Part shown: in pieces, positions 1 through 21,000 of the stretch
Numbering within the stretch: position 1 is the stretch's first letter
How the letters are laid out: every line of letters starts with the position of its first letter
Assembly (NCBI GenBank): GCA_964373175.1
Contig: CAYJTP010000002.1
Location: forward strand, 40,402-104,401
Origin: an uncultured Planctomycetales bacterium
Lineage (GTDB): Bacteria > Omnitrophota > Gorgyraeia > Aquiviventales > Aquiviventaceae
Length of the DNA: 64,000 bases
Direction: 5' to 3'
The notes under the pieces: generated by a model
Seen by the model: the letters and a program-made list of their open reading frames with translations, nothing else
Databases searched by the model: none
What the model was told of the DNA's origin: nothing
Translations under genes and position numbers: made by a program

Positions 1-20
1 CGGAGTTCGGAACAGCATTT

Positions 21-3000
21 TTGAGCGTCTTCCGGTTCAGCGAGATTCGCGCCAACCTGAATCTCCAAACGAACTCGGCGTGGGCCGACTTTACTCGGTT
101 TGGCATCACGCTCAGCCAACTGGCCAACCCGAGGAAGTACGAGTTGGGCGTGTTGGTGGATGATCCGGACTACCGCCTGGAGAATGTCAAGCGGACGGTG
201 ATTCGCGACCACCAGCTCCTGAGTGCGCTGAACGCTGACGCGACATTCCGAGGAGCCTTCTTTGACGTCTTCAGCCTGGCGGATCCTGGTGGGAGCCTGA
301 GTCTCGATGTGGCCCAATCCTACGCGGATCTCGTGCGGTTCGGGATCAGTGTGAGCTACTTGGCGAACCCGAAGAAGCTCGATCGGGACTCAAGCCGAGA
401 AATCGATGTTGAGTATGACTTCAATGAGACCCGAGACGGGATCATCCACGTCCAGCAGGTTCTCCAGGCGCTGCGAACGGATGCTCGGCTTCTGCAGGAC
501 TTCAACGCGGTGTATGGCTTGCGCTTGATCGTTTCGCAACTCAACCTGGATGTCAGTAGCCCCAGCCGCGATCAAAAGGCGCTCGGCTGGATTTTGGCTG
601 GGATCGTCCACGCGAGGGATGAGTACGACCGGAAACTCCCGTTTGTGTTGGAGGCCTTCACGCATGCGTTGCCGATCGTGAAGCAGATCCTGGAATCCGA
701 CAAGGCCCGGGCGATGTTACAGCGGCTCTATGGGGTTGAGATTCCTCGCGTGTTGAACCCGTTTGATCCGTCACCTCAGGTTCGTTCGGTCCGGGAGACC
801 GCGAGTCGCCTCCTCTTTGGCATCGCCTGGAACTGGATTGGCGATCAACGGATGCTGATTTATGTCAATGGGTGGCAAGAGCCCCACTACCGCTTCCCAA
901 CGGTTGAGCGATACCTGGAGGCGGTGGAGAAGATCGTCACGCTCATTGAGCTTTCGGATGAATACACTGAGATTCGGAACATCTTCAATCACGGCCTGCC
1001 ATTGGAGCTGCGCCATGACCGCGATGCGCTGACCATTGAGCGTCTCTTCGACGCGGTGCGCCACATCGGCCTGAAGGGCGCCTCGAAAGAGCAGTGGTAT
1101 CTGGATGTCCTGGAGTACGCCAAGACCTTGGTGAGCGCTGAGCGATTCAAGCGGTGGGTCGAGGCCAACAGCGATCTCGTGCTGGATCTTGGGCTGGCGG
1201 TGGATGAAGCCTTCATTACGCGCAATGCGAAGTCGCTCGCTGAGCCAATTCGCTCAGGGGTCACTGAGACGTACCAGTTCTACAACCGGCAGTTTGGCAT
1301 GGACATCCCGGCCTTCAGCATCACGAAGATCGCGGGCACGAACCTAGTCATTGCGACGGCCAAGACGCTCAGCGCCAAGCTTGCAGTTGATTTGCAGACT
1401 CATGAGATCTTTGGCGGCGAGATCGAACAAGAACTGGTCACCATTCACCACCAGGGTCGAACAAGGCAAGCCACGAAGGCTTCGAAAGCTTCGGCACAAA
1501 CGCCCACGACCACCGAACCCCGCACAGGCCCAGAACCTCAACGACTGTTGAGACCTTCCAGATTCCTTCCAGGATGGTCGCTTGCAGCCACACACTATGT
1601 TGACCCCACGGTTCGCTTTGGCGGAAGTGAGTGGTACCTCTACGACATTCTTAGTCTGAGTGCCGAGCACAAGCCGTCGCGTCTCCGATTCGAGGCGTTG
1701 ATGGAAACCAGTCTGGTGGGCAAGCCCGATCGAGGCGTGTTCAAAGCCGTTGAGAGTCGGCTGATCGTACCACGGCTGAGCCTCCGGACGAATCTGTTGG
1801 AGGGGAAACGCGGTACCATCGACCTTGAGCTGAGCAAACCGTTCATTGGTGAAGCCTCTGGGCCATGGTTGGCTGGTCTCCTGACACAAGGCGGGGGAGA
1901 ACGATGGTCGGCTGGGATGGAACTGAGGGGTTCGCTGTGGACCTTGGGCAAGACCACGCGAGGTGCAGGATTAGTCACGTTCCCGGTGTCCCTCCAGATT
2001 CCTGCTCTCCGAGGATCCTTGAACTTGACACCCGGCTTCTTCATTGAAGAGGGATTCTTCATAGTTGATGAGCAGCTAAGTGCTGGGGTTGGGATTGGCG
2101 ATGTGACGCTCTTTGCAGAACACAACCTCACCCATCTGGACGTCGTTCCAGCGGGTTTCCTCACCCCCAACACCGGTGATCGCCTCGGCCTTGGTGTTGG
2201 GAATCAGACGATTGGTCCACTCTCATTGACTGGCACGCTCTACCTCTATTCGTTGAATCCGCTGTTTAACAAGTGGAGGATTGAGGGAGGTGGGCTCACA
2301 CTCGGCATCACCGCGACGAGAGAACCCCAAGAGGCGGAACCGGAAGCTCCTGTCATGTCATCAGAGGAATCGATCAGTCAGGAACCGCAGGACGACCTCG
2401 CGACTGATCAGGCGCGCTTGGATACCGCTGCACTCAGCATAGATACTGTGATGGAAGGGGCAGTCAACCGTCTCATCGAGCGCAGAACCGTGGCGGTCGC
2501 CACCGGCCAGTTCACGCGCAAGGAGTTCGGCCGCTACGTCATTGATGAAACGACGCAGGAGCGGCTCTGGGTTTCGAGTGGCTATACGGTTGTGCGCATC
2601 GATGACAGGTACAGCCGCCTTGACTTCAACGGGACGCCCGTCCTCTACTACCGCGACACGGGTGAAGCCGGTCAGGACGTTCAGACGGAGCACCTTGGGA
2701 CATTTAAGACGAAGCTCGTGGAAGTCATCGATGCCAAGACTGTTCCGGCGGACAAAGACGGCACCCTCCAGCTTGACAAAGGCACCGTCATCGAACGACA
2801 ACACGTCGTGGTCGGCGATCCGCTTGGCCGAGCGGTGAGCCGGCACCATGTGGGTGGCCTGCTGAACGGCTATGTCGCGCTCATCGATGGTCTCGATCCG
2901 TACCTGCTGAACGGGTCCTTTACCGCCGAGCGCAGCCGGTTGGTGGACCCGAAGGGCAACACCGTTCGCTCCTATGAGGTAGTCAACCTCCATGAGAACC

Positions 3001-6000
3001 CTGAGGAGCTTGAGGTTGCTGTCCGCGATGCGAGTGGCTTACTGCTCTATCACGAGTTCATCCCCAACGGCGACATCCTCGGTGAATGGGTGAAGCGGGT
3101 GAAGACGCACGCCGACATGCAGGCCGTCACCACGCGCCACGCCGATCCCAAGGATCCCCGCAAGGACGCTGGCTATGACGTGGTCGTGACGAACAAGGGC
3201 GTTCCCATTGAGCACCGCGAAGTCTCAGATATCTGGGAAGAACCCGACACAGGTTTGATCCACGCCCACGAGCGCACGCAGGAAACCGGACAAGAAAAAG
3301 TCAGCATCTACGGCGCACTGGATGACCTCCGGGCTGAATTTACCGTCGGGCTGTCCAACAACACCGTGACGTTGGTGGAGTACGACGCCGACGCCAACGA
3401 GGCTGCTCGAACCACCTATCGCCTCACCGAAAACACGCAGGTGGATCCCAAGACGACCAGCCTAAAGGCTCTTCAGGACGTGGTCCAGCAGCCTCAGAGC
3501 GCCCAGGTCAGCAACGGCGCCGGGCAGCCCACGCGGAATGAAGATGGCACGGTCACAGTCCGAACCTGGGAAATCGTCTTCAGCGACCAAGGCCAGCCGC
3601 TCGGGAAGAAGACCGCTGTCGAAGTCCGCAACGGCTTGGGACGTCTCCTGAGTCGCACGACAGGCCACCAACGGGTCGAGCATGATCCAACCAAGCCCTT
3701 GGAACCGCCGCTTCGCAAAGTCGATACGTCCACCAACCAGCTCGTTCAGGACTACACCACGACTTTCGTCACCGAGGACCAGCGCATCACAGCCTTACAG
3801 GTGAAGACGACGGACCACCGTCATCACACCCAGTGGACCGACGTCTACAGCGTGAAGGAGGGCTTCGTTGAGCATCTCGTCGAGGGAACCGAGAACGGCC
3901 AGTCTGCTCAAGAGGTCACCGTGCCGGAGCGCGATGAATTCGGGATTATCCGGCATCAAGACACGTACTGGAACGATCGCGCAGGGACGAAGATGTACGA
4001 GGATCGGCTCACCGGATTTGACGAGTCAACCGGTGACGTCACTGTCACCCGCACCGATGTCAGGAAACGCGTTGAGGAAATTCGTACGTTCAACCAGGAT
4101 GGTGACCTCATCACGATCAAAACCGAATCGCGCACCACCACCATTGATCCAGCGACCCAGACGAGCACGACCATCGACAACGCCACAGGCGAAGTCCTCG
4201 TTGAGTCGATTGAAGCGTTCGAGCACGGGAAGAGAACGCGGATAGACACCTACTGGTACGACAAACGGCTTGGCATTAAGGCCTATCAGGACACCTCAGC
4301 CCTGAATGTGTTTGGCAGAGCCGAGACGGTGGTCACGGAAGATGAAAGGGCTCGCGTCGCCTACCACGAGGGCTTGGAGGTCGGCAGGCAAGTCTGGTGG
4401 AAGGGTGAGCTGGCTCGCGTGTACCGTCACTACGGTTATGGCCATGGCATCACGACACGCGAGGTGGACAACCAGTTTACGCACGGCACGCACACGGAAC
4501 GTCTGGACCAAAACGGTCGAGTCGTGAGCGAGCGCCACGGGAATGTGGAACTGAAGGTCATGTATGATGGCGCGACACTCCGGAGGACCAAGGCGTCCCT
4601 CCATCGGAAGATGAGCGATGGGAAGCTCAGCGCCAAACCCCTCATGACGTGGAAATACGAGTGGATCTTGGCATACAGCCACATCCCATGGCTGAAGGAG
4701 CTGTCACCAGAGGACCGGGCCGCGCTCGGCCTGAAGGACGCCACCCAGCTCCAAGCGATCACCACGACGACCGACTGGGGGGAAACCTCAACGGACTACG
4801 TCTTGGCTGGTGATCGGTATGGCCGAGCCCTCGTGACGAAGCTGCCGACGGGTGAGAAGCGCATCGTGGATGCATGGCTCAAGAATACCAACATGGCGCT
4901 GCAGAGCCGAATCCTGAGCCAAGACAATCAGCTGCTGAAGCGCTACGAGGCCACGCCCAAGCGATTGAGCGACGTGCTGGCCACGACGCAGCAGGGTCCC
5001 AACGGCCGCACGCTCCTGAACGACGAACTGGCCGGTGCGACGGTGGCCGAGATCAAGGAGTTTGACAATCAGGGGGTGTTGAATAAGTCGTGGGTCAGCT
5101 TCTTTCAGGTCGTCCCCGTGGCCAACCTCAAGGCTGGGGCACTCGATGTGATCCGCTATGATCCGACCAAGACCTGGGTGAAAGACGGCCAGGACACGTA
5201 TGAGGTGATCGACCAGCAGATCGGCAAGAAAATCATTGAATCCTACCGTGATGGCGCATTCGATGTTACGGGGTTGCAAGAGTGGCTGAAGGCGGATGGC
5301 TACCCCGACGCTGCGAACGCGCTCGCCCAACACGAAACCTACGATATCTACGTGCTCGGGCTTGATGAGCACACGCGGATCAAGACCTGGAAGACCGTCT
5401 TGAAGGCCAACAGCGATGAAGAGGTCTTACAGTATAACGCCAACGCCAGGCGGCTCCGCCTCAATCTCTACGATCGCGCAGGGACGAAGATCGGTGGAGT
5501 CGATTTCGACTACGACGGGTCGATGCCGGCCAGTCAGAGCCTGGAATCCTTAGCAGTGTCGGTGCGGTTGTCGGATCCCCTCGTCAAGGCCTTGGGCTAT
5601 CTCTCGGACGGTGAGGAGAAACAGTTCGAGAGCTTCCTCGTCCTGGACATCAAGAACAAGCTGGCATTTATCGAAGTACGGGACAAGCAAGATGGCGCCA
5701 CGGACAGGGTGGTCGACGCCAGCCCGCAATCGCCTCTCACCGACCAGTTGATCGGCGACCTGCTCCAAAGCCTGAAAACCTCGAATCTGGCTGAGGCCAA
5801 CGGCAAGCTGCCCCAACCGCAGCAGATCGAGAAATGGAAAATTGTCTCGAAGACCGTGTATCACTATCGTGCCTTTCAGGACTTCAGCGCGGTCCACCTG
5901 CGCAGGATGGGGATCGCTGGTCAGGCAGAGGGGTTCCTGTTTGATCCCAACACCAGGACGTACGCAGACCAGGCGGCGAGTGAATCGATCCTTGGCAATC

Positions 6001-9000
6001 TCGTGATTGGCCCTGAAGCCATCCGCTTCCCTGAGGCGATTCGCATTGAGATCTTCAGGGAGGATCGGCTGGAGCGACACGGCGCCCATGAGCTCAAGCA
6101 CACCGTAGAAGTGAAGGATGGCCTCGGGAGGAACACCGAGACCCAGTTTGGCCCCGCGGCGTCCGGCGAAACCCTGGAGGAGAAATTCCGCAACTTCACA
6201 GCAGAGCGCAAACGCTACCAATTCTATTTCTTCGAAGGCGGGGAGGAGAATCTGGCCAAGTACGGCATCGCAGATAAGAGCTTGGTCACCGTCGTCCTCA
6301 ATGGCCAGGAGTACCTCGCGGCGTTGTCCAACGCCACAGTCCCTCTTGCCAACGGCGATATCGACTACCGGACGCAAAAGGGTGTGAGCATCGAGCCCTT
6401 AGACATCCAGACCTTGGGCAGCACCGAATGGTATGCCCAGTTACGGGCCTGGCTGATGGAACGGAAACTGCAGTTGGACGGAGTCGTCTTGTCCTACGGG
6501 GAGGTAAAGACCAATCGCGGCCATCTCAAGCTCATCCTCACGGGATTCACTAAGAGCCAACTGGATCCGACGACCCACTTTGCGAAGAAAGGCGAACTAC
6601 CCCGAGACGTGACCTTCCTGCGCTACAACGACGAGGCACTCTTGTTCTACCTGGGCATCCCAGAGGGCAGCGTGACCTACGCCTACGATCCAGAGAAGCA
6701 GTTTGACCGTGCCCAATACGGGGAGGCTGATGAGCTTGCCCGAGCCAACGGGTTCAGGATTCAAAACCACCTCATGGTGTATGACGTCCACTTCGCCAAC
6801 AAATCAGAAAACGAGGGGAAGAAGCATCTTCGAGAAATGGGCGTCCGGTTGGACGGGAGTCTCGCCTATCAGGTCGGTCGCGATCGGTTCGATCTGTGGG
6901 GTTTGGATTTCGCACGGCCTGGCCGGGAGTACGACGCGATCGTCTCCTACGACATCCGAGAACTCGCTGAGGTCACGGAGCCGCTTCCGGAAGAGACGAA
7001 CCGGATCACCGACTTAGCACACCTCCGTCTACCTGGCGCAACAGCGGGCCGGAAGATCCAGCACCTGAATATCGTGTTTAAGGATCATCCGGGCTATCTG
7101 ATCACAACCAACACGGTGGCCCAAGAAGATCGCGATTACCTCGATGCTTTCTCGGACCTCATCAACGGTCGGGAAGCCCATTACGACAAGGCCCGTCATC
7201 TCCTTGTCCTGACAGGCGAAGAGCCTACGGTGGTGCTGAACGCCAAAGCAGGCCGGGACGCCAAGCTGTTCTTCCAAGGCGAGGAAGTCATGACGAAACA
7301 AGATCAGTTCACCACCCATGTCCTGCGAGATGATGAAGGAAAGAAACTGAACTTCGTGAAGCGACTCTATGAGGAAAATGTCAAGCGCAACAGCCTCTTC
7401 TCGAAGATCGTCAAAGCGCTTCCCGTCATCGGGGCACTCACGTTCTTGACATCGTTGCAGATGTATGCTGGCGAGCCCGCTGTGCCTGGAGTGGGGGCAA
7501 GCCAACCCAACCTGTGGCTCTATAGCCTTGGGGTGATTGCCGCTTATGTGTTTGTGATCTTGCCAACGTTGATCGCCGGGTTGTATTTCCTCTCGAAGGT
7601 CAACGCCTTGTTCTTGAGACTGGTCGTGAATGTGAACAAACTGATCCAGAAACCGACCAACAGACCACTGGCTCCTGGGGTGAACCCGGCTGACTATCGG
7701 ACCCCTCGGTATCACGAGGTGAAGCGCAAGGTCGGAGCTGTGAGCATCATTCCAGAGCTGATCCTCTACCTGGTGAACAAGGGAGCTGCTGACACCGAGA
7801 TTGAGCTTCAACGAGACTTCTGGAGGGCGGTGATCGATTACCAGATGAATCGCAAGCTCGGGGGGTATCGCTCCAAGAACTCGCTGCTCACCGCTCGTCC
7901 GTATGTCTTGGATATCCATGAGATCTCCAGCTTCTTGAAGCGTGCTCGTCAACAGGGGATCGATCCGATGACAGATGTCCCAGTGAACGGTCAAACACTC
8001 CAAACCGTGATCGAGTCACGGGCATGGGACGAGGCAGTGATCGACCAGGTGACCCAGGCGATTCGAGCCTTCTTGAGGGCTGGGCGACAGCAAGAGAACG
8101 CCGAACGGAAAGCCGCCAGGCTCCGCGGGAAGTTGCTTGAGGAAACCCCCTATCCGGTTGGGGCTTGGAAGTTTTCCTTCAAGATCCTCCCTCGGATGTT
8201 GAACGTCATGTTCCGGACACCCTTCCGAGGGGAAAGGACGCCGAACCTCTGGCAGGCCTCCAAGTTTTTTGGACTCATCATTGCCGAGACGATCCTGTCC
8301 GCAGTCGGGTTAAGTGCGCTGATGTTTGTCTATACCGCTCCTGAAATCTCTGCCTTTCTGCCGATGCTCTTTGGCCTCATCCCATTTACCGCGGTCGTGC
8401 TGCTCAATTTCTGGACTGTGCTGTACCTGAACTATGCAAGCCTGTTTCGGATCGTTCGGGGTCGGTTGCATCTGGATAACGTCTCCACGTGGAGCAGCGC
8501 CCAGCGCGTGTTTCGGCAGCTTCGACGCCAGTTGAAGCCTCAACTGAGAGGAATCTTTGATGTGTTCTACCGGCATGAAATTGACAACCTGCGGTTTGCG
8601 AATGATCAGCCAGGGAGAGGGCCGCTCGTCAGTGAAGACGAGCACACCGCGTTGCTCCATGCCCTTGAGGGAGGCCGGTTAATCAAGCCCCAGACCTTCG
8701 AAGCGACAGAAACCCTCAAGCGATTCCTCAACAAATGGGCAAAGGTCCAGGCAGACTTTAATGCACACCCTGAAGAAATTGAAGCGATCCTGCAAGGCGT
8801 CGAAGATAACCGGGAAGACTACCGGCTCAATGTGATGCACTCAGGCTATGGGGAACTGGTGTGGGTGCATTTCGAGCAGCTGGATGTCTTGGCTGAAGAG
8901 CCTGGAAAAAGAGAGGTGGTCACAAAGTTCCGGAAGCTCATGATGGTGCACCCCGAGGAGTGGACCCTGTTCATTCACGACCGCGTTGGCAATCAGCTGA

Positions 9001-12000
9001 CCAGACAAGACGAACAATTCCTGTCACCTCGTCGCAGAAGCCTCACCGCTGAATCGGCCGCTGCGTATCTCGCCCAACGCTTAGGACAACCGCTCGATGA
9101 TATCAAGGAGCAAATCGAGAAATGGGCCAACTGGCGGTTGGAGAACGCTGGGAAGACTATCATCGCCACGATCTTTAGCCATCTGGAAACCTATAAGGCA
9201 TGGGCAGAGGTCCTAGGGATTCCTGAGACACAGAGGGAGGCGTGGGCACGAGCCAGGGTTAAGGTGGTGGTCAAATATGACGAGTATGGACAGAATCCAG
9301 GCCGAACCGCCGACTGGGATCATGTCAATCAACGCTTTGGCAACATCCTCACCACTGCAAACCAGACGTCCTATGAAGCCAGGGAGGCGGCCATATCGGC
9401 CTGGCATCACGATGATCAGCATGCGGCAATCCTTGTGGGAGCGCCACCTGCCGAGATGAGAGGACATGGAACTAAGGTCGGGGGGTGGGCGTTGGTCATT
9501 CCCTATTTGGATAGCGACCTTGTCTATTTCTTGGATATTGGCCATCGGTTGGCATTCGATAGTGTGATGTTCACGCCGTTCATTTCCCGACAATTTGAGA
9601 CCAATCAGTCCCTGGCCATGGTGTCGCCGGTCTACTACGCGTATGAGGAAAACTACACGTCAACGAGCCGGAGCATGAGCATTGGCCATGAGGTGTGGGA
9701 CCGGGATATCCGCTCTATCAAAGACGTCATCGATAGCGAAGACGACTGGGGCAAGAAGTATGCTCGTGTGAGCGCCTTCGAAGCCGTCAACGCGTTTCTG
9801 CCAGAGTACAACTCTGAGGATACCGCTGGCGGGGTGCGGATGCTCAAGCTTGGCTACGACATCCGCCACACGGAGCTTGTGGATGTTCCGCAGTCTGTGG
9901 AAAAAGTGCACTTCTTGGGACGCTCCTTTGTGCTGCGCTTTGGCTCAACGGTCCCAGAACTCCTGCTCGGCCGTCCAGTGTGGAAGTTTCTCGGGTCACC
10001 CTTTGTCCACTGGACCGCGAAGCTTGGCACATTCATCAGCTTTAGCCACTACCTGCGCATTGCCTTGACGGCGGTGACGATGGTGAGCTTTGTCGTGTTG
10101 AATATGTTCTTCCCCTGGTCCCTCTTTACGCTGCTCCCATTTGTTCCAGTGTTTCTGACGCTCAACTTCTTGGCGAACCAGGCGGTCAATGCTCAAACCG
10201 TGTATCGGTACGAGCAGCGCTATGGGCTCCTCAAGGGTCTGGTGATGTTCTACAAGGATTTCCCGAACCTCTTCATCGATTACGTGACCTACGAGGTCGG
10301 GAACTTCCGACAATTCCTTGAGGGCCTACGCGGGTTTGGAATGTTTACATTCAGTCCAAGGATTAGCAATCTCTACCGCCATACGTTCAAAGCCCTTTGG
10401 AATGAACCGACTGTACGGACAGGGGTCAAGCTGGCGGCATTCCTCACGCCATTTATCCTGCTCATGCCGCTGCATCCAGTGAAGCTCTTGCCCAACCTTG
10501 GCTTTGTCGTGGCGGTCGTCACGTGGTTGGTGGGGCCGTTTATTCGGAATGTCCGTACGCCGTTTTCCGTCAATCCCATTCAATGGGCTAGACAATTGGC
10601 GATGGATGTGTTGCTGGTGCCTTGGGCGTTGTTGCGTGTTTTTGTAGACATAGGAAAAGACCTGAAAGAGAAAGTAAAGAAATGGCACGCAGGCCAACAG
10701 CGGTTGAACGTCATGCTGAGCGTGGCTCCACTTCTTGCCTGGCCGATGCTTCACAGGGCTATGCAAACCTCAGGTGTGACGTGGGGCGATGTGGCGTATT
10801 ACTCGTTAATGGGTATCACAGCTCTGGCAGTGCTGGGATCGATTGCCTCCGCAATTTATGAGATGAGGTACCGAACAATCTATTTTCAGCACTATGGAGA
10901 ATACGAACTAGAATTGAAAGAGAGAGCGGACTCACATCCTCTAGTGAGAATCCTCGTGGGACTTGGTGTAGCTACAGCCGTTCCTCTTTTTATGGTTGCA
11001 GTTGATGGGGTTAACCTGTCGGTCGTCATGATGATCGGCATGATACTGGCTCTCATGTTTGGAATAAGGAACCTAGATACGTCACTGGGAGTGATCTGGC
11101 AAAGTCGTCCTCTCCAGGTTAAAGAGCTGTTCAAGACAACAATGCCATTTCTCTCCGCTGAGTTCAGCGATAAGTTGCTGGAACAGTTGTGGTATGTGAC
11201 GCGACCGTATCGTGACAACAAGGCAGCTCTAGATGCGATTGCAGAAATCATTAGTTCTATGACGGAGCCTGGACGGAAACTCAAACCTGACTACTTTAAA
11301 CGGGGTGGTAAGTACTACACGACTAAATGGTGGAGCCATGGATATGGGGCCTATGAAGAGTACGAGGAGGAAGTAAGTGAAGAGGAAGCCACTCTCCCTG
11401 AGGTAGTAACCATCCCTGATGTAGCTAAAATCACAGAACTACTTAGCCATCCTAATGAACTTAACCGATTAGTGGTGGAACGTCTCAAAACAGTACAACA
11501 GTTAACTTCCAATACAGATAGCTTGAGACATCGTGGTCGCGGTGAAGCGTCTCCTGGGGCGTCTGAGACCGGGAACACGAAGCACCCTGGGAAACGACAC
11601 CAGCGATATCCTGGCAAGGTTGAGCGGGTTGGCTCTGAGGACAAGACCCAGGACGTCCATGTGACTGCGACGGTCAGTCCTGATCGGAACATCGCCTTTG
11701 AGTATCCGCCTGACGCCACGGTGCTAACCCGCTTGACGCCCGAGGAAGAACAGATGGTCCGCCAGAGTCTCCAGAACTGGCTGGCGACGCTCGAGCATGC
11801 GCCGCCCTTGCAGGCGAGGCAGATTCCGCTGTTGGTCACCGACAATCTCGATGAGGTGGCCAGACATCAGGCCGGCAGAATCGAGATCAACGCCGCCATC
11901 CTTCGTGGGCCACCTCCTGGTGGTCCCGAAACCCCCCAAGACCGCCAACTCTTCCTGCACGGTGTGATCTATCACGAAGGCTATCACTTCCTCTCCCCGC

Positions 12001-15000
12001 GCGACTCAGAAGCCCAAGTCCAGCGAGCCACCCTTGACTACTTTAAGACCAGACGAGACATCCTCGTCGCGACGCGCCGGGTTCTCGATGCGAACAATCC
12101 AAACCTCATCACCGGACAGGAGTGGCTTTCCCAGCTCGACGAGCTCGAGCGAACGCTCCAGCTTCAGGATGGTGTCTTGGTCTTCAGCTTGGAGGGAGTC
12201 CTGGTGCCCTACACCCCGCAGCGCAAAGCTCGACTGGTTGACAGTCCTGTCTATCCAGAATTCATGGCGCTCCTCCGCAACGGGTTCCGGATCGTGGTCA
12301 ATGCGGGACACAGCCTTGAGAACGTGCTCCCTCAGATTCTGGATGGCCTGCCCGAGGCTGATAAACCGCTGCTGAGGAACCTGACCATCTATTTCAACCG
12401 CGGCACGGCGAAAGTGACGTTCAGGTCCTCTGGTGAACCAATCTTCGTTGAGTCCTATGCAAAGACGCTCTCGGATACCGACATCCCTAGGCTGCACAAT
12501 ATTCTCACAGAGCGCGTCAACGAGTATTGGAACTGGGTCCTGGAGGATCGTGATCGGTTCGAGCGGATGTTCCCGCGGTTCAGGCTCACCGATCCGCCGA
12601 GTCCGCCGAGGACTGAGTATCGTACATGGCAACCCTCTGCGTCGCAAGACCAAAACATGGGATTGTACAAAATGATGTTGTACCAATGGGGGTTGAAAGC
12701 AATGCCCTCTATTCCCCACGTGACACAAATCACGATTCTCCCATTCCCGTCCATAGAACTCGAAGGCGTTCCGGGAGCGACCGATTGGAGAAAAGCGTTC
12801 TTAACGCGTCTCCTCGAGGACCTCAAGGCTCAGGCTCCGGACTTATTGGAGCGTTACGATTTTATCCCTGGCGGGATCTATTCCATTGATATCGTCCGGA
12901 AAGGGGTGGGTAAAGATACACCGCTCAAAGAGGCCACGGCAGGTGTTGATCCTGGACATGTCCTGGTGGTCGCGAACACGGATCTGCATGGAGAAGGGGA
13001 AGGGGATTTGCCCTTGGGAACCCTTTCCTATCTCCAGCCCTACTCCGTGGGGGACATCAGCGATCTCCCGAAGGGATTCCGCACAGCTGGAATGGGGCTC
13101 TTTGCGACAAAACAGCTTATGCGCGAGGTCCTCAAAAACTATGACTATGCGAAGGCCCATCCGGAGCGTCCACCAACGAATGCGATCGGCACGGTGAAAG
13201 AATTCCTCCGCAAGCGACAACAGGCGATTTATGACATGTCGTGGTCCCCGACGATTGAAGGAGCGGTCCAGCAGTTCAACGCGTGGAGGAACCAACAGGC
13301 GACCCAAGGGAAGTCACCGAGCCGGGAGGACCAAGAAGACTATGTTCGGGGACTCTTTCAGACCTATCAACTCAATCGACTGAAGGGGTCGCCCTGGACG
13401 GACCTTTACGCACGAACACTTGCAGAACGCATGCACGCACAGACAGCCATCCGCACCCTCTTAAAAGAGCTCACCGCGGTCGATAAAGCGGAGCAATTCT
13501 ATGCACTGGTCGACGCAATTGACCAGCGCATGGGACTACGGAACGAACTGAGCAGCCAAGATTTCTGGGAGTACTACAAAGCAGTCGATCCCCGTGTGAT
13601 CCTAGCCCTCCGACGCCTCAAACAGATCACCGGATACGATGAGCATCGGCTTCGGGACGAGGTGATTCGCGAGGTCGCAGCATCTGAGAGGTCTCTGGGG
13701 CATGCGTTGAGTGTGCCACGGGTTTTGGTGAGCTACGCGGGTGATCGGATGGTCTTTCCGGCGATCAAAGCAAGCCCTCACAAGCCGCATGTATCTCCGA
13801 GCCAATACATGTATGTCGGTGGCGGGGGACCGGCGGCATCGTTCCTCATCCAAGGATGGATCCATCAAGCTCGCCAACGTGGAGAGCTGGCTCCAAACGA
13901 GCACGTGACAGATGTCACACTCGATCGCACCAAGCTGGGGCCTGCGGTCATGACGGTGGCCACGATCACGACCACCTTTGATGATGGGGGAGACTCGAGG
14001 AATTTCCTGCTTGGCTTTCTCGAAACCCCTCCCTATGAGACCTACTTCCTCCCGCCGGGAGACATCTCCGTCATGCTGGGCTTTGCGACGGATGATCCTG
14101 CGAAGCTCTGGTTTCTGCACTATGCCGACAAGAAAGAAGGACGGATCAGCGGTCGTGCAATTGCTCCGATCTGGCTCAAACGCCTCAAGATGATTCATGA
14201 AAAAATTGAGAATGGCCTATTGCCCCGTCCACCGGATTGGCTGGCCTTCGTCAACGCCGCGATGACGCTGGGTGATCTGTTGGATCGCGAGCTGGTGGAG
14301 CGGAACGTGGTGCATCCATCTCGATCGGAAGCGCCTCCAGCTCAAGCACGAGGGAGGGAGCTTCTGTTCAAAGACGGCAGCAGCCAGAATTTCTTCACGG
14401 AGGCTGCTGCGGGCTTAGACACCGGGGCGCTGATCCCTGGCGATGAACACCTGATCCGCGGGTTGTTCGATCCCTCGCGCTTGGATATCGACCATCTCAA
14501 GACTCTGCTGGGCATCCGCGATGCCCACGTCTACCCGGTGAGCCCCGATGAAGCTACGCTCGTGGCCCTTGATGAACAGGGCCACACGGTGGATCAAGAC
14601 ATGCACGTGACCCTTGGGGGCCGTATCTATCCAGTCCACCCTGCCGAGGAACAGACCGGCATTAGTGACAAGGCGCATGTTGGACGAATCCACCAGGTCA
14701 TCTTTCGAAAGCGGGTACCTAAAAAAGAGGAGAAAACGAACGTCATTTCTTATTCCTATCGCCAATTGAGACCTGAAGAGATACCAAAAGCGACCAAGGA
14801 GGAACTAGAGGGTATTGCGCGAGTTCTACAGGTGATTGTCTCCGGGCTGGGGAGTTCCTTCACGAGCATTCTTCCTGACCTGATGGTCCAAGGGGTGGTG
14901 GAGGCGATCATGGAGCGGCAAGACATCCCCCGCATCTATGTCGCCAAGATCAAGAAAGACCTCGAGACCTCCCAGCTTGATGTAATCGGGAAGACCTTGC

Positions 15001-18000
15001 GGGCGATCCCGCTCCGTGAGCAAATCGCCGTGATGGAACGATCCCTCGAAGGCGCACTGGGCAAGCCGGTCCGGTTTGAGCGGCTCTTCAGCCATGTAGT
15101 CCTTCCCCGTCTTTCGCAGAAAACCATTGACCGGCTGGCTGAGCTGGACAAGCTCACGGACCTTGAGGTCGAAAAGCTGCTCGAAGGGGGACCCCAGATC
15201 AGCAAGTATGTTCGAGGAGCCCAACTCATCAGCCAGGAAGACCTCGAGTTCCTCCAATCCCGCGGGATTCAAATTGTCTGGGTTGACGAATCGGACATTG
15301 AACTGCTCGGTGAGAAGAGGCGAGATGCGTGGTATCTGGGACTCGCCTTGAAGGCGTTACAGACAAAGACACCTCTCGAAAATGAGGATCAGCTGCTCTC
15401 CGTAGCCGACAAGACGAAAATTGTCGTTGAACACTCGACAGGTCAGGTCTTCGTGGATGGGAAAGAAGTGACCAAGGCACTTGGGGACCGAAAGGTTACC
15501 GAAGCAGCTCAGGTGGTTTCTCGCCACCCGAAGGTCCGTCACTACGTCAATCAACACTTGTTGGCTGAGGGAACGCTCACGGAGATTGAAGCGTTGGTCG
15601 ACCACATGGACCAGAAACCTCCCTACTATAAGACGCAGCCCCTCCTCAGGACGATCGATGAGATTGTCGCGTCGTACAGACCTTCCCAGCAGGCTGATAT
15701 CATCACGATTGACGGCCCTGCGGGAACCGGCAAGAGCACGGTAGCGCGCAAACTCGCTAAGCGCTTGGGTTGGCGCTACCTCGATAGCGGGGCGCTGTAT
15801 CGAGCGCTCACCCTCAAGGCGTTGGAGGAAAAGATTAAGTTGGATGATGAGATAGGGCTGTCCGACCTGGCCTGGGAAACCCAGATTGAACTCTCCGGAG
15901 ATCAGGTCTTGTTGGATGGAAAGGACGTGACAAAGGCGATTCGGAGTCAACAGGTGACCAGGGCCGTCTCGCTGGTTGCGCAACATCCAGGGGTCCGGCA
16001 ATACATCACCTGGCTGCAGCGCCGCCTGGCCAGGTCGGGAAAGACGATCTTAGAGGGCCGAGATACCGGAACCGTGGTGATGCCGGGAGCGATGCATAAG
16101 GTCTATCTCGATGCGCCGCTCAACGTACGTGCCGAGCGGCGTCAACAGGAACTCGCTTCCCGAAAGATCACGTCCAGGCTCGAGAAGGTCCGTCAGGGCA
16201 TCGAGAAGCGCGATCAGCGTGATCAGGGACGCGCGATCGCGCCACTGCGTCCTGCGCCAGGGGCCCACCTCATTGACACGGATCAGATGACCAGTGACCA
16301 GGTGGTTGACCAGATTCTCGCTGGAAAAGGAGCCGCCTACGGAGCCCTCCTGATCGATGCTGATGTGACCCTGCTACGCTCGGCCGATAAGACAGAGACG
16401 TTGAGCACCAGCCCGGCCCGAGACGCCTTGCTCAAGGTGCTTCAGCAGGGGGTGCGCGTGGCGATCATGACAGGCAACAGTGCGACACAAGCCCTGGCCC
16501 GCCTGATCGAGACCCCCGCACAGGGAGAGCAGCCAGCTCTCGTCCACATCCCACCGGAACTTCGTCACCTGGTCACTGTATACGCCAACGGGGGCTTACA
16601 GAAATTCACCTTTGACCAGGCTGGCGTTCCGCACGAAGAGGAAGCGTACCGGTCGGGGAAAGAGATTCCAGCGACCGATCGACAACGGATCCTTAAATCC
16701 ATCCAGCCGCTGCTAGACTGGTATCGCAACCGCGTTCAGAGTCTGGGTGGGCGGTTTATTAACGCACAACCCGACTTCCTCCTCCAAGGCAGAACCCTTA
16801 GGATTCCTGAGATCGTTCTCGAAGGAGAAACATCGGGTGAAGGGGTGCTGAAAATTGCCCTGATGTTCCTTTCCGCTCATCGGGCCATGGAGCTGAAAGA
16901 CTCCAAAGCCCCTGAGACCTTTCCGGATCTCCGGCAGGAGTTCCTTGAGAAGCTGTTGGCCATGCTGCCAGATGACCTGAAGGGCCGCTACAGCTTTAGC
17001 GAAGGTGGTCTCAGCAGCATCGATATCAAGCGCAAGGGGCTGGATAAATTGGTGGATGTCCGAGACTACTTGACCTCAACCAACCTTGCGCCTGAAGATG
17101 CCATCTACTTCGGAGATGAAGTCTATCCGGGAGGAAACGACTACCCTGTGACGACGATTCCAGGGCTGTTGGTGATTGGAGTCAATCCCGATCAGTCGAC
17201 CGTCGCAACTCCCGCCATCCCGGGTGGCGCAGGTGTCATGGGGACCACGTGGTGGTTAGAGAACCTTGATCAGTTGATTACCTTTCATCCCACGAGGAAG
17301 AAGTTGGTCAATCACCCGATCGCGCCCACGCCGATTCAACACCTACGTCTCCAAGCACAAGGACCGTGGCGGGAGCGAGAGACGTCGGCAGGCGTCGCCC
17401 GCGAACTCCTCACCTCTGTGGATGGGGGTCGTCTCATCGCCACGACCTATTCGCTCACTGAGCACTCAGCGCGCGATCAGGAGGCGCCTCAAGTCGCAAA
17501 AGGCCCCAACCAACTTGCGAGAAATGTGCTGGTGGATGGGGTCGTATTTCCCCTGGTCAATGACCAAGGCTGGACTCTTGATACCGCGTTAGCCCAGGAC
17601 CTGACCTCAGAGCAGCAGCCGCTCCTCCATCCAGCTGAGGCGGCCAAGGGTGCTCCCGGGACACGCTTCATCCTCAATCTCCTTTACTACCTCACGGTGC
17701 GGCTGTATGAACGGTATAACCAACTCCGGAAAGATCGACCGGCCGAGCAGCTGACTCGCCAAAACTTCTATCTCGATCACTACAAACCCTTGCACGGTGA
17801 GGAACGGTTCCCCTTGTACAACAAGGGCTATGTTGGCATCGGTAAGGACGGTAAGCTCATCTTCGGCCAGCGAACGCTCCTTGGAGGCAAGCTCTGGTTC
17901 GGTTCGCGGGAGCTGTCCTGGACCGAGCGAGATATCAACCCCACTGCTTGGAGCTTAGCCGGTCATCCGGTCATCGTTTACACGCCGAGTTACGCCGATG

Positions 18001-21000
18001 CCGCTTCGTCTTTCACTTCGCAGGTCACCGGCAAGCCCGGTGATCCCAATTTCAGCGTCACTGTCGGGCGAGCACGGTACAACCTCCTCGTCATCGATAA
18101 CCGCATCGAAGCGGTGATCCACGGGGAGGTATTCCTGCCCTATGTGGGGGTGGTGCTCTCGGTTGATCAAGCGACCTTCGATCGGGTGTTCCGTGATCAG
18201 GTGGAGCAGGTGGATGTTCAAGGGGAACGCCGCGAGGTCTACCGCCCACGCGTCAGCTATCGCTTCCAGCTCGATCCGCCGAAAGCGTTTGAAGGTGATT
18301 GGAGCCACGTGCAGTGGCTGATGGGAGGCGGGTACCTGTTGGTCGCGCACGGCGAGAACCTCGTGGCCACACCAGAAAAGACGCAGGAGAGCCTGAGAGC
18401 TCAGGGCTGGCTCAACCCACTGTCACGCCAGTCACTGGAAACGCCACTGGACGTGCGTGGTCCTGAGCAACGAGATCCTACCGTGGTGATCGGCCAGACG
18501 AAAGATGGGCAACTGTTCGTGGTCACCTTCAGCGGACGGACCATCCACAGCAGCGGCGTGACCTTCCCTGAGGCCGTGCGCATTCTTGAGGAAGAGTTTG
18601 GCGCTGGGAATCTCGAGTGGGTCTTGAATCTCGATAGCGGATCCTCAGTGTCCTTGGGTGCGGTGGATGAAGAGGGTCGCTACCATCTCCTGAATTATCC
18701 TGGACCAGGTCCTGATACCTTGGCGGGAGAGGTGAGGCCGGTCAATAGTCTCGGGTTCATCACGACCCGCCAAGTTCCCAGACGTCTTGGGCAACTTCAG
18801 ACACTCGCCCATACCGCCGCGCCCTTCCAGCCCATTACGGAATGGAACCAGACATTTGAGAAGTTCAGGCCTGGCGATCCCGGGACCGACACAGTCACCG
18901 TCGGGCTTGATCTGGGTTCAGGGAGAGGCCGACACCTCTTCCAGATCACGGTGCCGAGAACCGACGATCCTCCCGTCCAAGCCGCGATCATCCGCTACCT
19001 GGCGATCCAGATCTATAACCGCTTGGGAACGTTTGGTCCTGAGCGGGTGTTGATCGATGCGCCTGAGGCGCTCTACAACCAACTTGTCGCCTTCTTAGCG
19101 CAAGGCGGCTCAGCGACCTCGTTTGGACGCATCCAGGCGTATCTAGCCCTAGTGAACCAGAAGCCGTTTACCATCCTGCCAGCCGATCGCACGACCATCG
19201 AGGCGCTCCCGGCTGAGCCTGTCGGTCTGGCTGTGCCGGATATCAATCCGCGCCGAGGCCAGGTCGTAGCGATTGACATCGGAGGGACCGATGTCAAAGT
19301 GGTCGCCATGCAGGACGGTGTAGTGGTCTATCAGCACACAGCAAACTGGGTTCCCGAGCAGTTCACCGACCCTGAGCAACACGTTGAACTCCTTGAGCGT
19401 TTGATCCGACAGGCCCAAGCAGAGGGCAAGCTCCCAGCATTGGATGCCATTGGCATCAGCTGGAACTCAGCTGTGCGCGACGGCCGCATTGCGGCTTCCA
19501 CCAAGGCGACCAAGGGATTGACCGAGGAGCAGTTCCGCAACGTGATCAGTCCGATCCGCGAGCGCTTTGAACGCGACTTCAAGATTCCTGTGGCTATCGC
19601 GAATGACGGGGATGCTGGGGCGCTGTGGGCAGCGGTAGAGCTTGGCGTGAACAATGCGCTGGCCCTCAGCATGGGAACCAACCTCGCCTCTGGCTATGTG
19701 GACCCCCAGGGGGACCTTGCTCCCTACTTGACCGAGATGACCAACGTCATCATCGACCTTGGGACAGAAGCCGCTCCCCATTCCTTTACGAAGGTCCCAG
19801 GGGTCTCGCAGCAATACCTGTCTCAACAACCTGCGTTCCGCTTGGCGCGTCAAGCTGGCATCAGCCTCGATGCGATGGCGCATGACGCGGCTCGGTTAGA
19901 GTACGTGCAATCGCTCCTTGACCAGAACGACCCACAGGCCGTTTCGATTTTCAAACAGATCGGTCGATACTTAGCGACGCACATCGCAGAGACCCAGCAG
20001 TACCTTGGAATGACCAACGTCATCCTCTTTGGTCGTGTGGTGCGCGGTCGTGCTGGTAACCTGATTGTGGAGGAAGCCCAACGCGTCCTGCGGGACATGG
20101 ACCCGGTCCTGGCTGATGCGGTGACCATCCGCCTTGCGACCGAGGTCCACTATGGGCAGGCGATCGGGGCAGGGTATCTGGCCAGTCGCCATTTCCAGCA
20201 GCTTAATTCCACTGATGAAGTCGAGATTGCCCGTCGGCGATTCGATGAACGGTGGGTAGCAGCTCAACAAAAACAGGCGCGTGGATTTACAGCCGAGGAT
20301 GTGCACAACGCCTACTACGATGCGCAAAGCAAGCAGTGGAAGTCAATCTACGGAATCAGCCCCGTCGTCTGGATAGACCCAGGCCTTATGAAACAAGTCC
20401 AGAGCGCGTTGAAGGCTAAACTCTCACCAGCGCTTCAATCAAAGCTTGTCTGGTTCACTCCATCCACGAGCCACGTCACCATCGCTTACCTTGGGCTTTG
20501 GAGAACGACGCCCCTCGATAAGGAAACAGTTCAAACGTATCAAGCGCTGTCCGACCAAATCATTCCAAAACTCATTCGGAGACCCCTCAGCTTTTCAGCA
20601 GAAGGCGTTGGTATGATGCTAAACGGCGCCCTGTTTGTTCCCATGATTCCCACTGAGGGATCGCTCGCGATCCTCGACCAGGTGGACGCACGCTATCTTG
20701 AAGAGGTTCCTGGTCTCGAACATTTCCCGAGCGTCGTTCCCCATGTAACGCTTGCGTATCTTGTTAGCGAATTAACCCCAGAAGAGATGCAACAGCTACT
20801 CAAGGCCATCGAAGAGCTTCGGGGAATCCAATGGGGAGCCTATCGGGCTGACGAGATCGTGCTCTATGCTTACGATGACTTGTCGCTTGAACGTGGGCGC
20901 GTGTTGAACCGGTACGATCTGACGGCGCCCGCGAGCCAAGCCAAATCCCCAGCGCCGATGGCGATCCTGACGGGTCTCTTGGCTGGACTGTGGCTGGGCC

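Follow-up and report, generated by a model that had tools for sequence, protein, structure and literature searches.

The comparisons reported here suggest, at roughly two chances in three, that nt about 8265-11078 of the analysed window (a stretch of 64,000 nucleotides) encode a single divergent module of cellulose-synthase-like fold, embedded in the membrane and serving as a processive, inverting glycosyltransferase and exporter, which belongs to a GT48-related family. This family appears to be rare and prokaryotic, to reside mostly in Omnitrophota giant proteins, and to be related to the eukaryotic GT48 beta-1,3-glucan synthases. The module, about 940 aa in all, sits within a giant open frame whose 5' end is cut by the window edge, an upstream stop being absent inside the window. 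An earlier note, read from the letters alone, had placed a GT48-like synthase at 8935-10640; the module is indeed there, but in full it is larger. The five motifs that it quoted are all present, in the order and place given, in one open + frame at nt 8949-9878, and the multi-helix bundle that it described after them is seen as hydrophobic helices at aa 3344-3686, both in a hydropathy scan and in the AF2 model.

3-63065, + strand: giant open reading frame containing the module, at least 21,014 aa (stop codon 63063-63065)
8265-8432, + strand: hairpin of two transmembrane helices, aa 2749-2804 (hydropathy scan)
8442-8900, + strand: conserved cytosolic helical region adjoining the membrane (VRGRLHLDNVS ... 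PGRGPL ... NKWA ...)
8919-9287, + strand: GT48-type N-terminal helical subdomain, aa 2967-3089 (hhalign against FKS1)
8949-8963, + strand: HPEEW (translation)
9120-9137, + strand: KWANWR (translation)
9258-9293, + strand: VKVVVKYDEYGQ (translation)
9288-9455, + strand: variable insert of low identity between N-terminal subdomain and catalytic core
9456-10010, + strand: GT-A catalytic core including the finger-helix motif SED, aa 3146-3330 (FKS1 residue map, hhalign)
9528-9560, + strand: FLDIGHRLAFD (translation)
9582-9596, + strand: ISRQF (translation)
9813-9833, + strand: SEDTAGG (translation)
9843-9878, + strand: LKLGYDIRHTEL (translation)
10011-11078, + strand: interface and transmembrane helix bundle, presumed glycan channel, aa 3331-3686

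Two helices precede the GT domain and about 7-9 follow it. BcsA is similar to FKS1 in having its GT domain inserted between transmembrane helices. Since the GT domain of FKS1 is inserted between TM6 and TM7 (PMC12715860), we infer that the N-terminal hairpin belongs to the module, and P0002 and other relatives are likewise hydrophobic at the equivalent position. The helical region that follows has no Pfam match and no known counterpart; many of its positions are invariant between the window and the relative P0001, and it falls within the P0002 match (profile positions 167-892). The N-terminal subdomain carries HPEEW..F, KWANWRLENAGKT and VKVVVKY. Conservation is highest in the catalytic core, which is 61-72% identical to the closest relatives, the insert and tail that flank it reaching no more than 13-27%; the insert, for which this range was obtained against the three closest relatives, also has low pLDDT at about model residues 129-180 and is where P0001 carries large insertions.

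Relationship to the GT48 family

The HMM searches against GT48 and GT2 that the earlier note proposed gave a divided answer. In Pfam and NCBIfam the window's own sequence matches neither a GT48 nor a GT2 model, and among PDB sequences it matches nothing; its segment 8001-12200 has no PF02364 (Glucan_synthase) match even at E<=10 and no Pfam GT2 match, and 4- and 8-sequence profiles of its clade likewise gave no direct match to a GT48/GT2 model or PDB sequence. An exhaustive profile search of 1.84 billion representatives nevertheless yielded 49 relatives, and most of the source-named ones are partial Omnitrophota giant proteins. Three of them pass the PF02364 gathering cut-off of 37.2 bits over the same region (P0026 at 42.9, P0037 at 100.8 and P0042 at 108.3 bits), having been recovered at E=8.7e-12 to 3.5e-6 in the relative search, and some reach Glyco_trans_2_3 (with 28-35 bits, the cut-off being 27). 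Moreover, BLASTP links the window to P0040 at E=7e-25, and P0040 in turn to FKS1 at 42 bits.

We compared the module with yeast FKS1/GSC2 (PDB 7XE4, 7YUY, 8JZN, 9WZV), plant callose synthases and PF02364. A 19-sequence family profile, headed by the window sequence, finds FKS1/GSC2 at E about 8e-35, in a match that spans FKS1 745-1275. The match to FKS1 starts at profile position 197 and that to BcsA only at 450 (positions 450-690), and thus the N-terminal subdomain is common to GT48 and not to BcsA. In a second profile the GT48-positive members were excluded, leaving 24 family members for comparison with FKS1 745-1075. Here hhalign aligns window aa 2967-3089 with FKS1 870-1007, where FKS1 carries HPxEW..F, WAS.R.QTL.RT and a KF..V strand (probability 91%, E=1.1e-6), and the corresponding core profile matches FKS1 1081-1274 (95.7%, E=9.6e-9); both halves are collinear, and cross-controls gave E of 0.5-0.9. 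No FKS1 match was found outside 745-1509 in the family alignment, and the membrane bundle shows no significant similarity to the membrane region of FKS1. The motif correspondences with FKS that the earlier note had drawn are those that the profile alignments produce. These comparisons give good support for a significant GT48 homology over the catalytic domain, through a link that is transitive or profile-based; the label 'GT48-like' is justified for the module, that of a GT48 member goes further than the comparisons show, and the window itself stays below the PF02364 gathering cut-off. The earlier note would have given up its proposal on the lack of any significant GT48 or GT2 hit together with a fold unrelated to GT-A; because the lack of hits applies only to the window sequence itself, the proposal of a GT48-like synthase module is upheld via relatives, profiles and hhalign to FKS1.

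The AF2 model of the module (pLDDT 70, pTM 0.69) rests on only 19 sequences and is unreliable over its C-terminal 100 residues. In it strands precede D3172, and E3266-D3267 stand at the N-terminus of a helix (306-316) that begins at E3266. Its top Foldseek matches are all processive membrane synthases, the highest TM-score being that of FKS1 (0.47), the enzyme with which the earlier note had proposed a structural comparison. The module also shows the architecture of GT2 processive membrane synthases, its GT-A domain being continued by helices that would form a transmembrane glycan channel.

Active site and competing readings

Four sites in the core can be placed on FKS1:

9474-9476, + strand: K3152, equivalent of FKS1 K1082; K in 35/35 aligned family sequences
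9534-9536, + strand: D3172, equivalent of FKS1 D1102; D in 35/35 sequences
9816-9821, + strand: E3266-D3267, equivalent of the FKS1 E1221-D1222 'ED' catalytic motif; invariant in 36/36 sequences
9891-9905, + strand: QSVEK, aa 3291-3295, at the position of FKS1 K1246-G-R1248-D (residue map)

As in FKS1 and other GT48 enzymes, the GT-A core of the module is preceded by an N-terminal helical subdomain, collinear with theirs (P-x-E-W..F; W-A-x-x-R.....[KR]-T; K-x-x-x-V strand), and a helix bundle comes after the GT domain; the module also keeps K1082, D1102 (without DxD), E1221/D1222, H1238 and E1240. K1082 was proposed, with mutant data, to stabilise the UDP-Glc donor (PMC10499315). D1102 opens the metal-independent 'DAN' motif, which reads D-I-G in the window; at its third position the GT48-positive relatives have N (FDANA), the stand-alone relatives D (LDSDH) and most of the window's clade G. 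The BcsA counterpart of the ED motif is TED. The earlier note had asked after the ED motif and the basic residues downstream of it: the former is invariant, but in the window's clade the latter are not basic, K1246 being replaced by Q3291 and R1248 by V3293. QS[VA]EK is kept in the window, P0001-P0007 and close kin, with GK[GA]RE in the GT48-positive relatives. In the residue map of the window FKS1 E1155 becomes Y3205, K1172/E1173 become G3222/H3223, and H1195 falls in a gap. Five active-site positions that are lethal to FKS1 when mutated are altered in the window (K1246, R1248, E1155, E1173 and H1195), each being required for FKS1 function, as is K1172, and the K1246/R1248 double mutant is inactive (PMC10499315).

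The module further differs from FKS1 in having about 2+7 helices where FKS1 has 17 transmembrane ones; FKS/CalS enzymes have about 15-17, together with an N-terminal accessory domain and Rho GTPase regulation. It lies inside a prokaryotic protein of >21,000 aa, whereas FKS1 is a eukaryotic enzyme some 1,900 aa long, and the FKS1 accessory (AC) domain was not detected in the module. The GT48-positive prokaryotic relatives (P0023, P0026, P0032, P0037, P0040 and P0042) share its architecture and lie mostly within multi-thousand-residue giant proteins, P0026 being named Omnitrophota. These relatives keep the FKS-type FDANA, EYI, FYGH and GK[GA]RE, whereas the clade of the window, P0001, P0002 and P0003 has DIGH, GHEVWDRD and QSVEK and fails the PF02364 threshold.

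That the motif likeness arose by chance in a giant ORF that is long and poorly conserved might be argued from the window's want of a direct Pfam, NCBIfam or PDB-sequence match, yet this explanation is refuted, and we give it a negligible probability: besides the 49 relatives, hhalign joins the window's 4-sequence clade to the GT48-positive group at 99.7% (E=1.5e-25), and an HMM of the GT48-like relatives only, built without any window-clade sequence, scores the window at 132-140 bits (139.8 in the shuffle test), whereas none of 500 shuffles of the segment scores above 3.2 bits. A more serious alternative is that the module is a divergent GT2 processive synthase, of cellulose-synthase or Glyco_trans_2_3 type, which resembles GT48 through the common GT-A core only. 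We consider this unlikely. Glucan_synthase far outscores GT2 in proteins that match both (108.3 vs 35.3 and 100.8 vs 31.7 bits), the 19-sequence family profile gives FKS1 123 bits and BcsA 48 (E=3e-12), 250 profile columns N-terminal of the core are matched by FKS1 only, and the N-terminal subdomain still aligns with FKS1 when GT48-positive members are excluded. Unlike BcsA and other GT2 synthases (HAS, CesA, CslF6, chitin synthase), the module has no DxD (D-I-G there), no QxxRW (Q-S-V-E-K there) and no PilZ or c-di-GMP domain, a single D and the ED being what is left of the GT2 signature, and it has the extra N-terminal helical subdomain where BcsA matches only the core.

The altered active site also raises the idea of a dead synthase relic, kept in the giant protein as a membrane anchor, glycan-binding or glycan-conducting channel, or scaffold. 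The loss of the five FKS1-essential residues, the missing metal-binding DxD and a sequence lying under every curated family threshold all favour such a relic, but we judge it improbable: 35-36 divergent sequences show no variation in the nucleotide-binding K and D or in the catalytic ED, strong conservation extends to the replacement motifs QSVEK, GHEVWDRD and YENYTSTS, and no other part of the module is as well conserved as the catalytic block, which is the pattern expected of a working active site. Considering both the invariant K, D and ED and the peak of identity in this block, we propose that the module is probably catalytically active.

If the module is a GT48-related synthase, homology suggests how it would work. 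A cytosolic GT-A domain would sit between the two-helix membrane hairpin and the downstream helix bundle, and would bind an NDP-sugar through K3152 and D3172, probably without metal, like FKS1, given that no DxD is present. D3267 of the SED finger helix would then act as the catalytic base extending the polymer, and the growing chain would be threaded through the channel of the downstream helices. The acceptor/product side is remodelled in a clade-conserved manner, with QSVEK for GKGRD, GHEVWDRD for GKEQTF and no H1195 equivalent, which argues for a product that is probably other than the beta-1,3-glucan of FKS1. The altered acceptor-site residues also call for caution in assuming that the module would turn UDP-glucose into linear beta-1,3-glucan.

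The giant open frame and its relatives

Downstream of the module CofD-like, cytidylate kinase, HAD/PMM-like and ROK sugar kinase domains are fused in conserved order, and these sugar/nucleotide enzyme-like domains could plausibly supply or recycle precursors. If so, this part of the giant protein would be a self-contained factory for an envelope or coat polysaccharide. The synthase module by itself suggests that these giant proteins, which are poorly understood, also build polysaccharide. Elsewhere in the frame Pfam finds CofD, cytidylate kinase, HAD/PMM-like, NAGPA, ROK, methyltransferase, response regulator, acyl-CoA dehydrogenase, transaldolase, GT4/GT1, alpha/beta hydrolase and TPR domains, and the hydropathy scan shows many hydrophobic segments. 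Partial giant proteins are collinear with it over thousands of residues, and its domain order recurs in giant-protein fragments, several in each case being named Omnitrophota. The window's giant protein is itself probably of Omnitrophota origin; an exact 51-mer had no match in the GTDB representatives or among the JGI contigs.

These features recall the 'Archaeovorin'-type giants of Omnitrophota, which include a 39,678-aa protein of Velamenicoccus archaeovorus (West-Roberts et al., bioRxiv 10.1101/2023.11.21.568195). Both are multi-transmembrane giant ORFs with glycosyltransferase, methyltransferase, TPR and sugar-metabolism domains, and the window's nearest source-named relatives are likewise Omnitrophota MAG proteins. 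Most full-length 'Archaeovorin' examples contain a divergent SecA_DEAD domain (bioRxiv 10.1101/2023.11.21.568195); none was detected by domain searches of the window, in which the ORF is 5'-truncated. Term searches of the full text of that preprint found a glucan/cellulose synthase-type module nowhere mentioned; regions with transmembrane helices were not folded by its authors, and what is published stresses adhesion and the degradation of cell walls rather than the synthesis of polymers (bioRxiv 10.1101/2023.11.21.568195).

We can only speculate, and hold it as a rather doubtful proposition, that the eukaryotic GT48 glucan and callose synthases have a sister lineage among prokaryotes, borne by Omnitrophota giant proteins together with some few genes that stand alone. 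Its motifs would form a graded series, from GT2-style (LDSDH / GQGEE) through FKS-style (FDANA / GKGRE) to the window type (LDIGH / QSVEK), so that the lineage could mark the long-sought prokaryotic root of GT48. If true, the giant 'predation' proteins would be self-contained factories with sugar activation, synthase and exporter combined, and would build the extracellular coat of the cell rather than only degrade prey walls. Within the giant protein itself, the HMM of the GT48-like relatives finds the synthase module as a single copy in the whole 21,020-aa translation.

A giant reading frame with one synthase module

The window encodes a giant protein of the Omnitrophota type that contains a GT48-like synthase module whose acceptor site is remodelled. 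The open reading frame occupies nearly the whole window on the + strand, from nt 3 (the first in-frame codon) to a stop at 63063-63065, and comprises at least 21,014 aa, its 5' end being truncated at the window edge. The earlier note had recognized in it a series of glucan-synthase-like motifs followed by a multi-helix bundle, and we found every motif where it had been placed and in a single frame, with a run of hydrophobic helices behind them:

nt 8949, + strand, frame of the giant ORF: HPEEW
nt 9120, + strand, giant ORF frame: KWANWR
nt 9258, + strand, giant ORF frame: VKVVVKYDEYGQ
nt 9528, + strand, giant ORF frame: FLDIGHRLAFD
nt 9582, + strand, giant ORF frame: ISRQF
nt 9813, + strand, giant ORF frame: SEDTAGG
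nt 9843, + strand, giant ORF frame: LKLGYDIRHTEL
aa 2749-2804: two hydrophobic helices ahead of the motif region
aa 3344-3686: run of hydrophobic helices after the motif region

An HMM of seven GT48-like relatives, built without any sequence of the window's clade (the window with P0001, P0002 and P0003, its nearest relatives), had a single match in the giant protein, at aa 3033-3599 (132 bits), and found no second copy elsewhere in it; the excised segment scored 139.8 bits, and 500 shuffles of it at most 3.2. The module is a single copy whose position is conserved within giant proteins.

Relationship of the module to GT48

Direct family scans of the window sequence were negative. Pfam and NCBIfam profiles run on aa 2661-4060 (window 8001-12200) gave no GT48 or GT2 match at E<=10, only noise (Sid-5, Sld5); phmmer of the window sequence found no match among all PDB sequences, and window profiles with the 1, 3 or 7 nearest relatives matched neither FKS1 nor BcsA there. 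By the curated Pfam criterion the predicted protein is therefore not a GT48 member, and the HMM search proposed earlier gave no match for the window itself but did so for some of its relatives. A word-indexed homologue search, even with a 19-sequence profile, retrieved only P0001 (38% identical to the window) and P0003, and nothing when the P0037 fragment was the query. When HMMER was run exhaustively on 1.84 billion representatives with the window and P0001 as query, 49 proteins were recovered at E<=1e-3, with a common core at profile positions ~470-880. In a lenient Pfam scan (E<=0.1) of 20 of these, Glucan_synthase (PF02364) was matched in 10 and Glyco_trans_2_3 in 7. Three exceed the PF02364 gathering score of 37.2 bits (P0026 with 42.9, P0037 with 100.8 and P0042 with 108.3 bits), the match covering the same region in each and their GT2 scores reaching just ~30-35 bits. 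P0026 in turn matches the window and P0001 profile at E=8.7e-12, the window's four-sequence clade aligns with the GT48-like group at a probability of 99.7% (E=1.5e-25, hhalign), and a further relative, P0040, is matched by the window at E=7e-25 (BLASTP) and by FKS1 with 42 bits.

With the 19-sequence family profile, of which the window is the first row, yeast FKS1/GSC2 was matched at E ~8e-35 (123 bits) over FKS1 745-1275 and, weakly, 1375-1509, and BcsA with 48 bits over the GT-A core only. The FKS1 745-1275 sequence was rebuilt from the profile output, and 14/14 published active-site residues were verified in it. As a control for circularity, every member with any PF02364 signal was dropped before the FKS1 alignment, and two separate halves were still collinear with FKS1: window aa 2967-3089 with FKS1 870-1007 (probability 91%, E=1.1e-6) and the catalytic core with FKS1 1081-1274 (95.7%, E=9.6e-9), swapped-half controls giving E=0.5-0.9. 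The former half holds the first three motifs of the earlier note, paired between window and FKS1 as HPEEWTLF/HPVEWECF, KWANWRLENAGKT/IWASLRSQTLYRT and VKVVVKY/KFKFLVS. It is mainly because this N-terminal subdomain, the part unmatched by BcsA, matches FKS1 that we term the module GT48-like and not merely GT-A. For the helix bundle the alignment with FKS1 1375-1509 was not significant in the window's clade (E=0.1-0.3) and marginal in the DxD subgroup (E=0.0065, both hhalign), and we therefore claim no GT48-specific homology for the membrane part.

Structure prediction, proposed earlier as a comparison with FKS1, gave a model resembling processive synthases. An AlphaFold2 model from the 19-sequence alignment reached pLDDT 70 and pTM 0.69, with confidence of ~80-90 across the GT core and first membrane helices and an unreliable last 100 residues; a model from a 2-sequence alignment (pLDDT 34.6) was discarded. 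The top Foldseek matches were all processive membrane synthases; BcsA ranked first by E-value (9e-8), FKS1 (9wzv) by TM-score (0.47). Taken together the family comparisons show that the predicted module is homologous to processive GT-A membrane synthases and, through its N-terminal subdomain and the family-level scores, specifically related to GT48. The original reading as a GT48-like glycan synthase was correct.

A conserved core and a remodelled acceptor site

Read against the published roles of the FKS1 active-site residues (PMC10499315), the core catalytic residues are conserved in the predicted family: K3152 (=K1082), D3172 (=D1102) and E3266/D3267 (=E1221/D1222) are invariant in 35-36 sequences, and H3283 (=H1238) and E3285 (=E1240), kept in the window, are the family's commonest residues there. 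In the model D3172 is immediately preceded by a strand and E3266 begins a helix, in keeping with a DxD strand and a 'finger helix'. Altered relative to FKS1 are N1104 (to G), E1155 (to Y), K1172/E1173 (to G/H), H1195 (a gap), K1246 (to Q) and R1248 (to V). Of the two features that the earlier note proposed to check in homologues, the ED motif is conserved, but the basic residues downstream of it are missing in the window's clade, where QS[VA]EK stands in place of the GK[GA]RE of the GT48-positive relatives; a third subgroup, including P0015, combines a GT2-style LDSDH with GQGEE.

Two other accounts of the module have to be weighed. That it should rather be assigned to GT2, as a divergent member, seems to us unlikely, roughly a one-in-five matter, given that the N-terminal subdomain aligns with FKS1 870-1007 but not with BcsA. 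That it is an inactive relic is less probable still, since sequence identity in the window's narrow clade is highest in the catalytic block (61-72%, against 13-27% in insert and tail), a pattern pointing to an active site that still works, even if re-specified. Chance resemblance was also considered and is excluded. If the GT48-like module is active, as we infer, it would use an NDP-sugar without metal and export the polymer through the downstream helices, the product would be other than beta-1,3-glucan, and the neighbouring sugar and nucleotide domains would feed it.

The giant-protein setting and distribution of the family

Relatives with a named source are mostly partial proteins of 'Candidatus Omnitrophota' MAGs, and with several fragments the window is collinear over thousands of residues in the order unknown regions, synthase module, CofD, CMK/HAD, ROK:

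nt 1-8250 (~2,740 aa): Pfam-blank flank upstream of the module
nt 11100-14480 (~1,130 aa): Pfam-blank flank downstream of the module
nt ~14487-20200 (aa ~4823-6730): CofD, cytidylate kinase, HAD/PMM-like, NAGPA phosphodiester glycosidase and ROK sugar kinase, downstream of the synthase

This order of sugar and nucleotide enzyme-like domains recurs in fragments P0004-P0007 and P0009, of which several carry the name Omnitrophota, and suggests a fused precursor-supply cassette. Elsewhere the ORF holds methyltransferases, response regulators, acyl-CoA dehydrogenase, transaldolase, GT4/GT1, alpha/beta hydrolase and TPR domains. In the flanks (aa 1-2960 and 3694-4833) a Pfam scan relaxed to E<=1 gave no match; stretches within aa ~1700-2900 are nonetheless conserved in other giant-protein fragments, among them P0004, P0018 and P0049.

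In the literature consulted, GT48 counts as a eukaryotic family, as it does in CAZy. The present prokaryotic family, whose motifs link GT2 with GT48, is relevant to the origin of FKS and callose synthases, and it provides small homologues, perhaps tractable ones, of an antifungal drug target. Enormous Omnitrophota ORFs are described as poorly annotated, with adhesion or prey cell-wall degradation proposed (PMC10066038; bioRxiv 2023.11.21.568195), and the synthase module suggests a further possible function for them. The window ORF's domain content fits the description of the 'Archaeovorin' giant proteins, whose TM-helix-containing regions were left out of structure prediction in that work (bioRxiv 2023.11.21.568195), and term searches of it found no mention of glucan or cellulose synthase; the searchable literature yielded no link between Omnitrophota giant proteins and glucan synthases, a single co-occurrence (PMC8581802) aside. 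The finding points to prokaryotic GT48 relatives and offers for the giant proteins a biosynthetic role that can be tested: a conserved membrane synthase ahead of sugar and nucleotide enzyme-like domains in fixed order leads to the biochemically testable hypothesis that part of the giant protein makes and exports a polysaccharide.

The giant ORF also contains five HExxH motifs (window nt 6087, 11973, 21354, 36120 and 55866), against 0.84 +/- 0.95 expected (200 shuffles, maximum 4), four of them in similar context (GVIYHEGYHFL, RVVRHELTHLK, ALATHETAHQL, GYVGTHEGHHYL). The motif at nt 11973 is ~300 aa beyond the synthase helix bundle; in P0003, 'MIVHELIESA' follows that protein's own synthase module. 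Such sites may represent mini-zincin modules by which the giant protein is cleaved into separate parts.

The window's subclade (DIGH / GHEVWDRD / QSVEK) is extremely rare, with three relatives above ~35% identity (P0001, P0002 and P0003, all on short contigs) among representatives of ~15 billion proteins and no match in GTDB representative genomes; an exact 51-mer was absent from both the GTDB representatives and the JGI contigs, and pattern scans of these two collections yielded no relatives of greater length. P0015 is a stand-alone 742-aa gene (10001-12229 of its locus, L005) that carries a GT2-style DSDH motif and is surrounded by ordinary bacterial genes (GH62, GH127, diacylglycerol kinase, radical SAM), and the module is therefore not confined to giant proteins; neither P0015 nor its subgroup profile had an informative match in the PDB. 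P0037 (961 aa, MHA1676782.1), whose PF02364 score is second only to that of P0042 among prokaryotic relatives, is labelled 'Candidatus Njordarchaeales archaeon' (Asgard), which may be a binning error because its 2.9-kb contig is so short; if genuine, this origin would bear on that of eukaryotic GT48.
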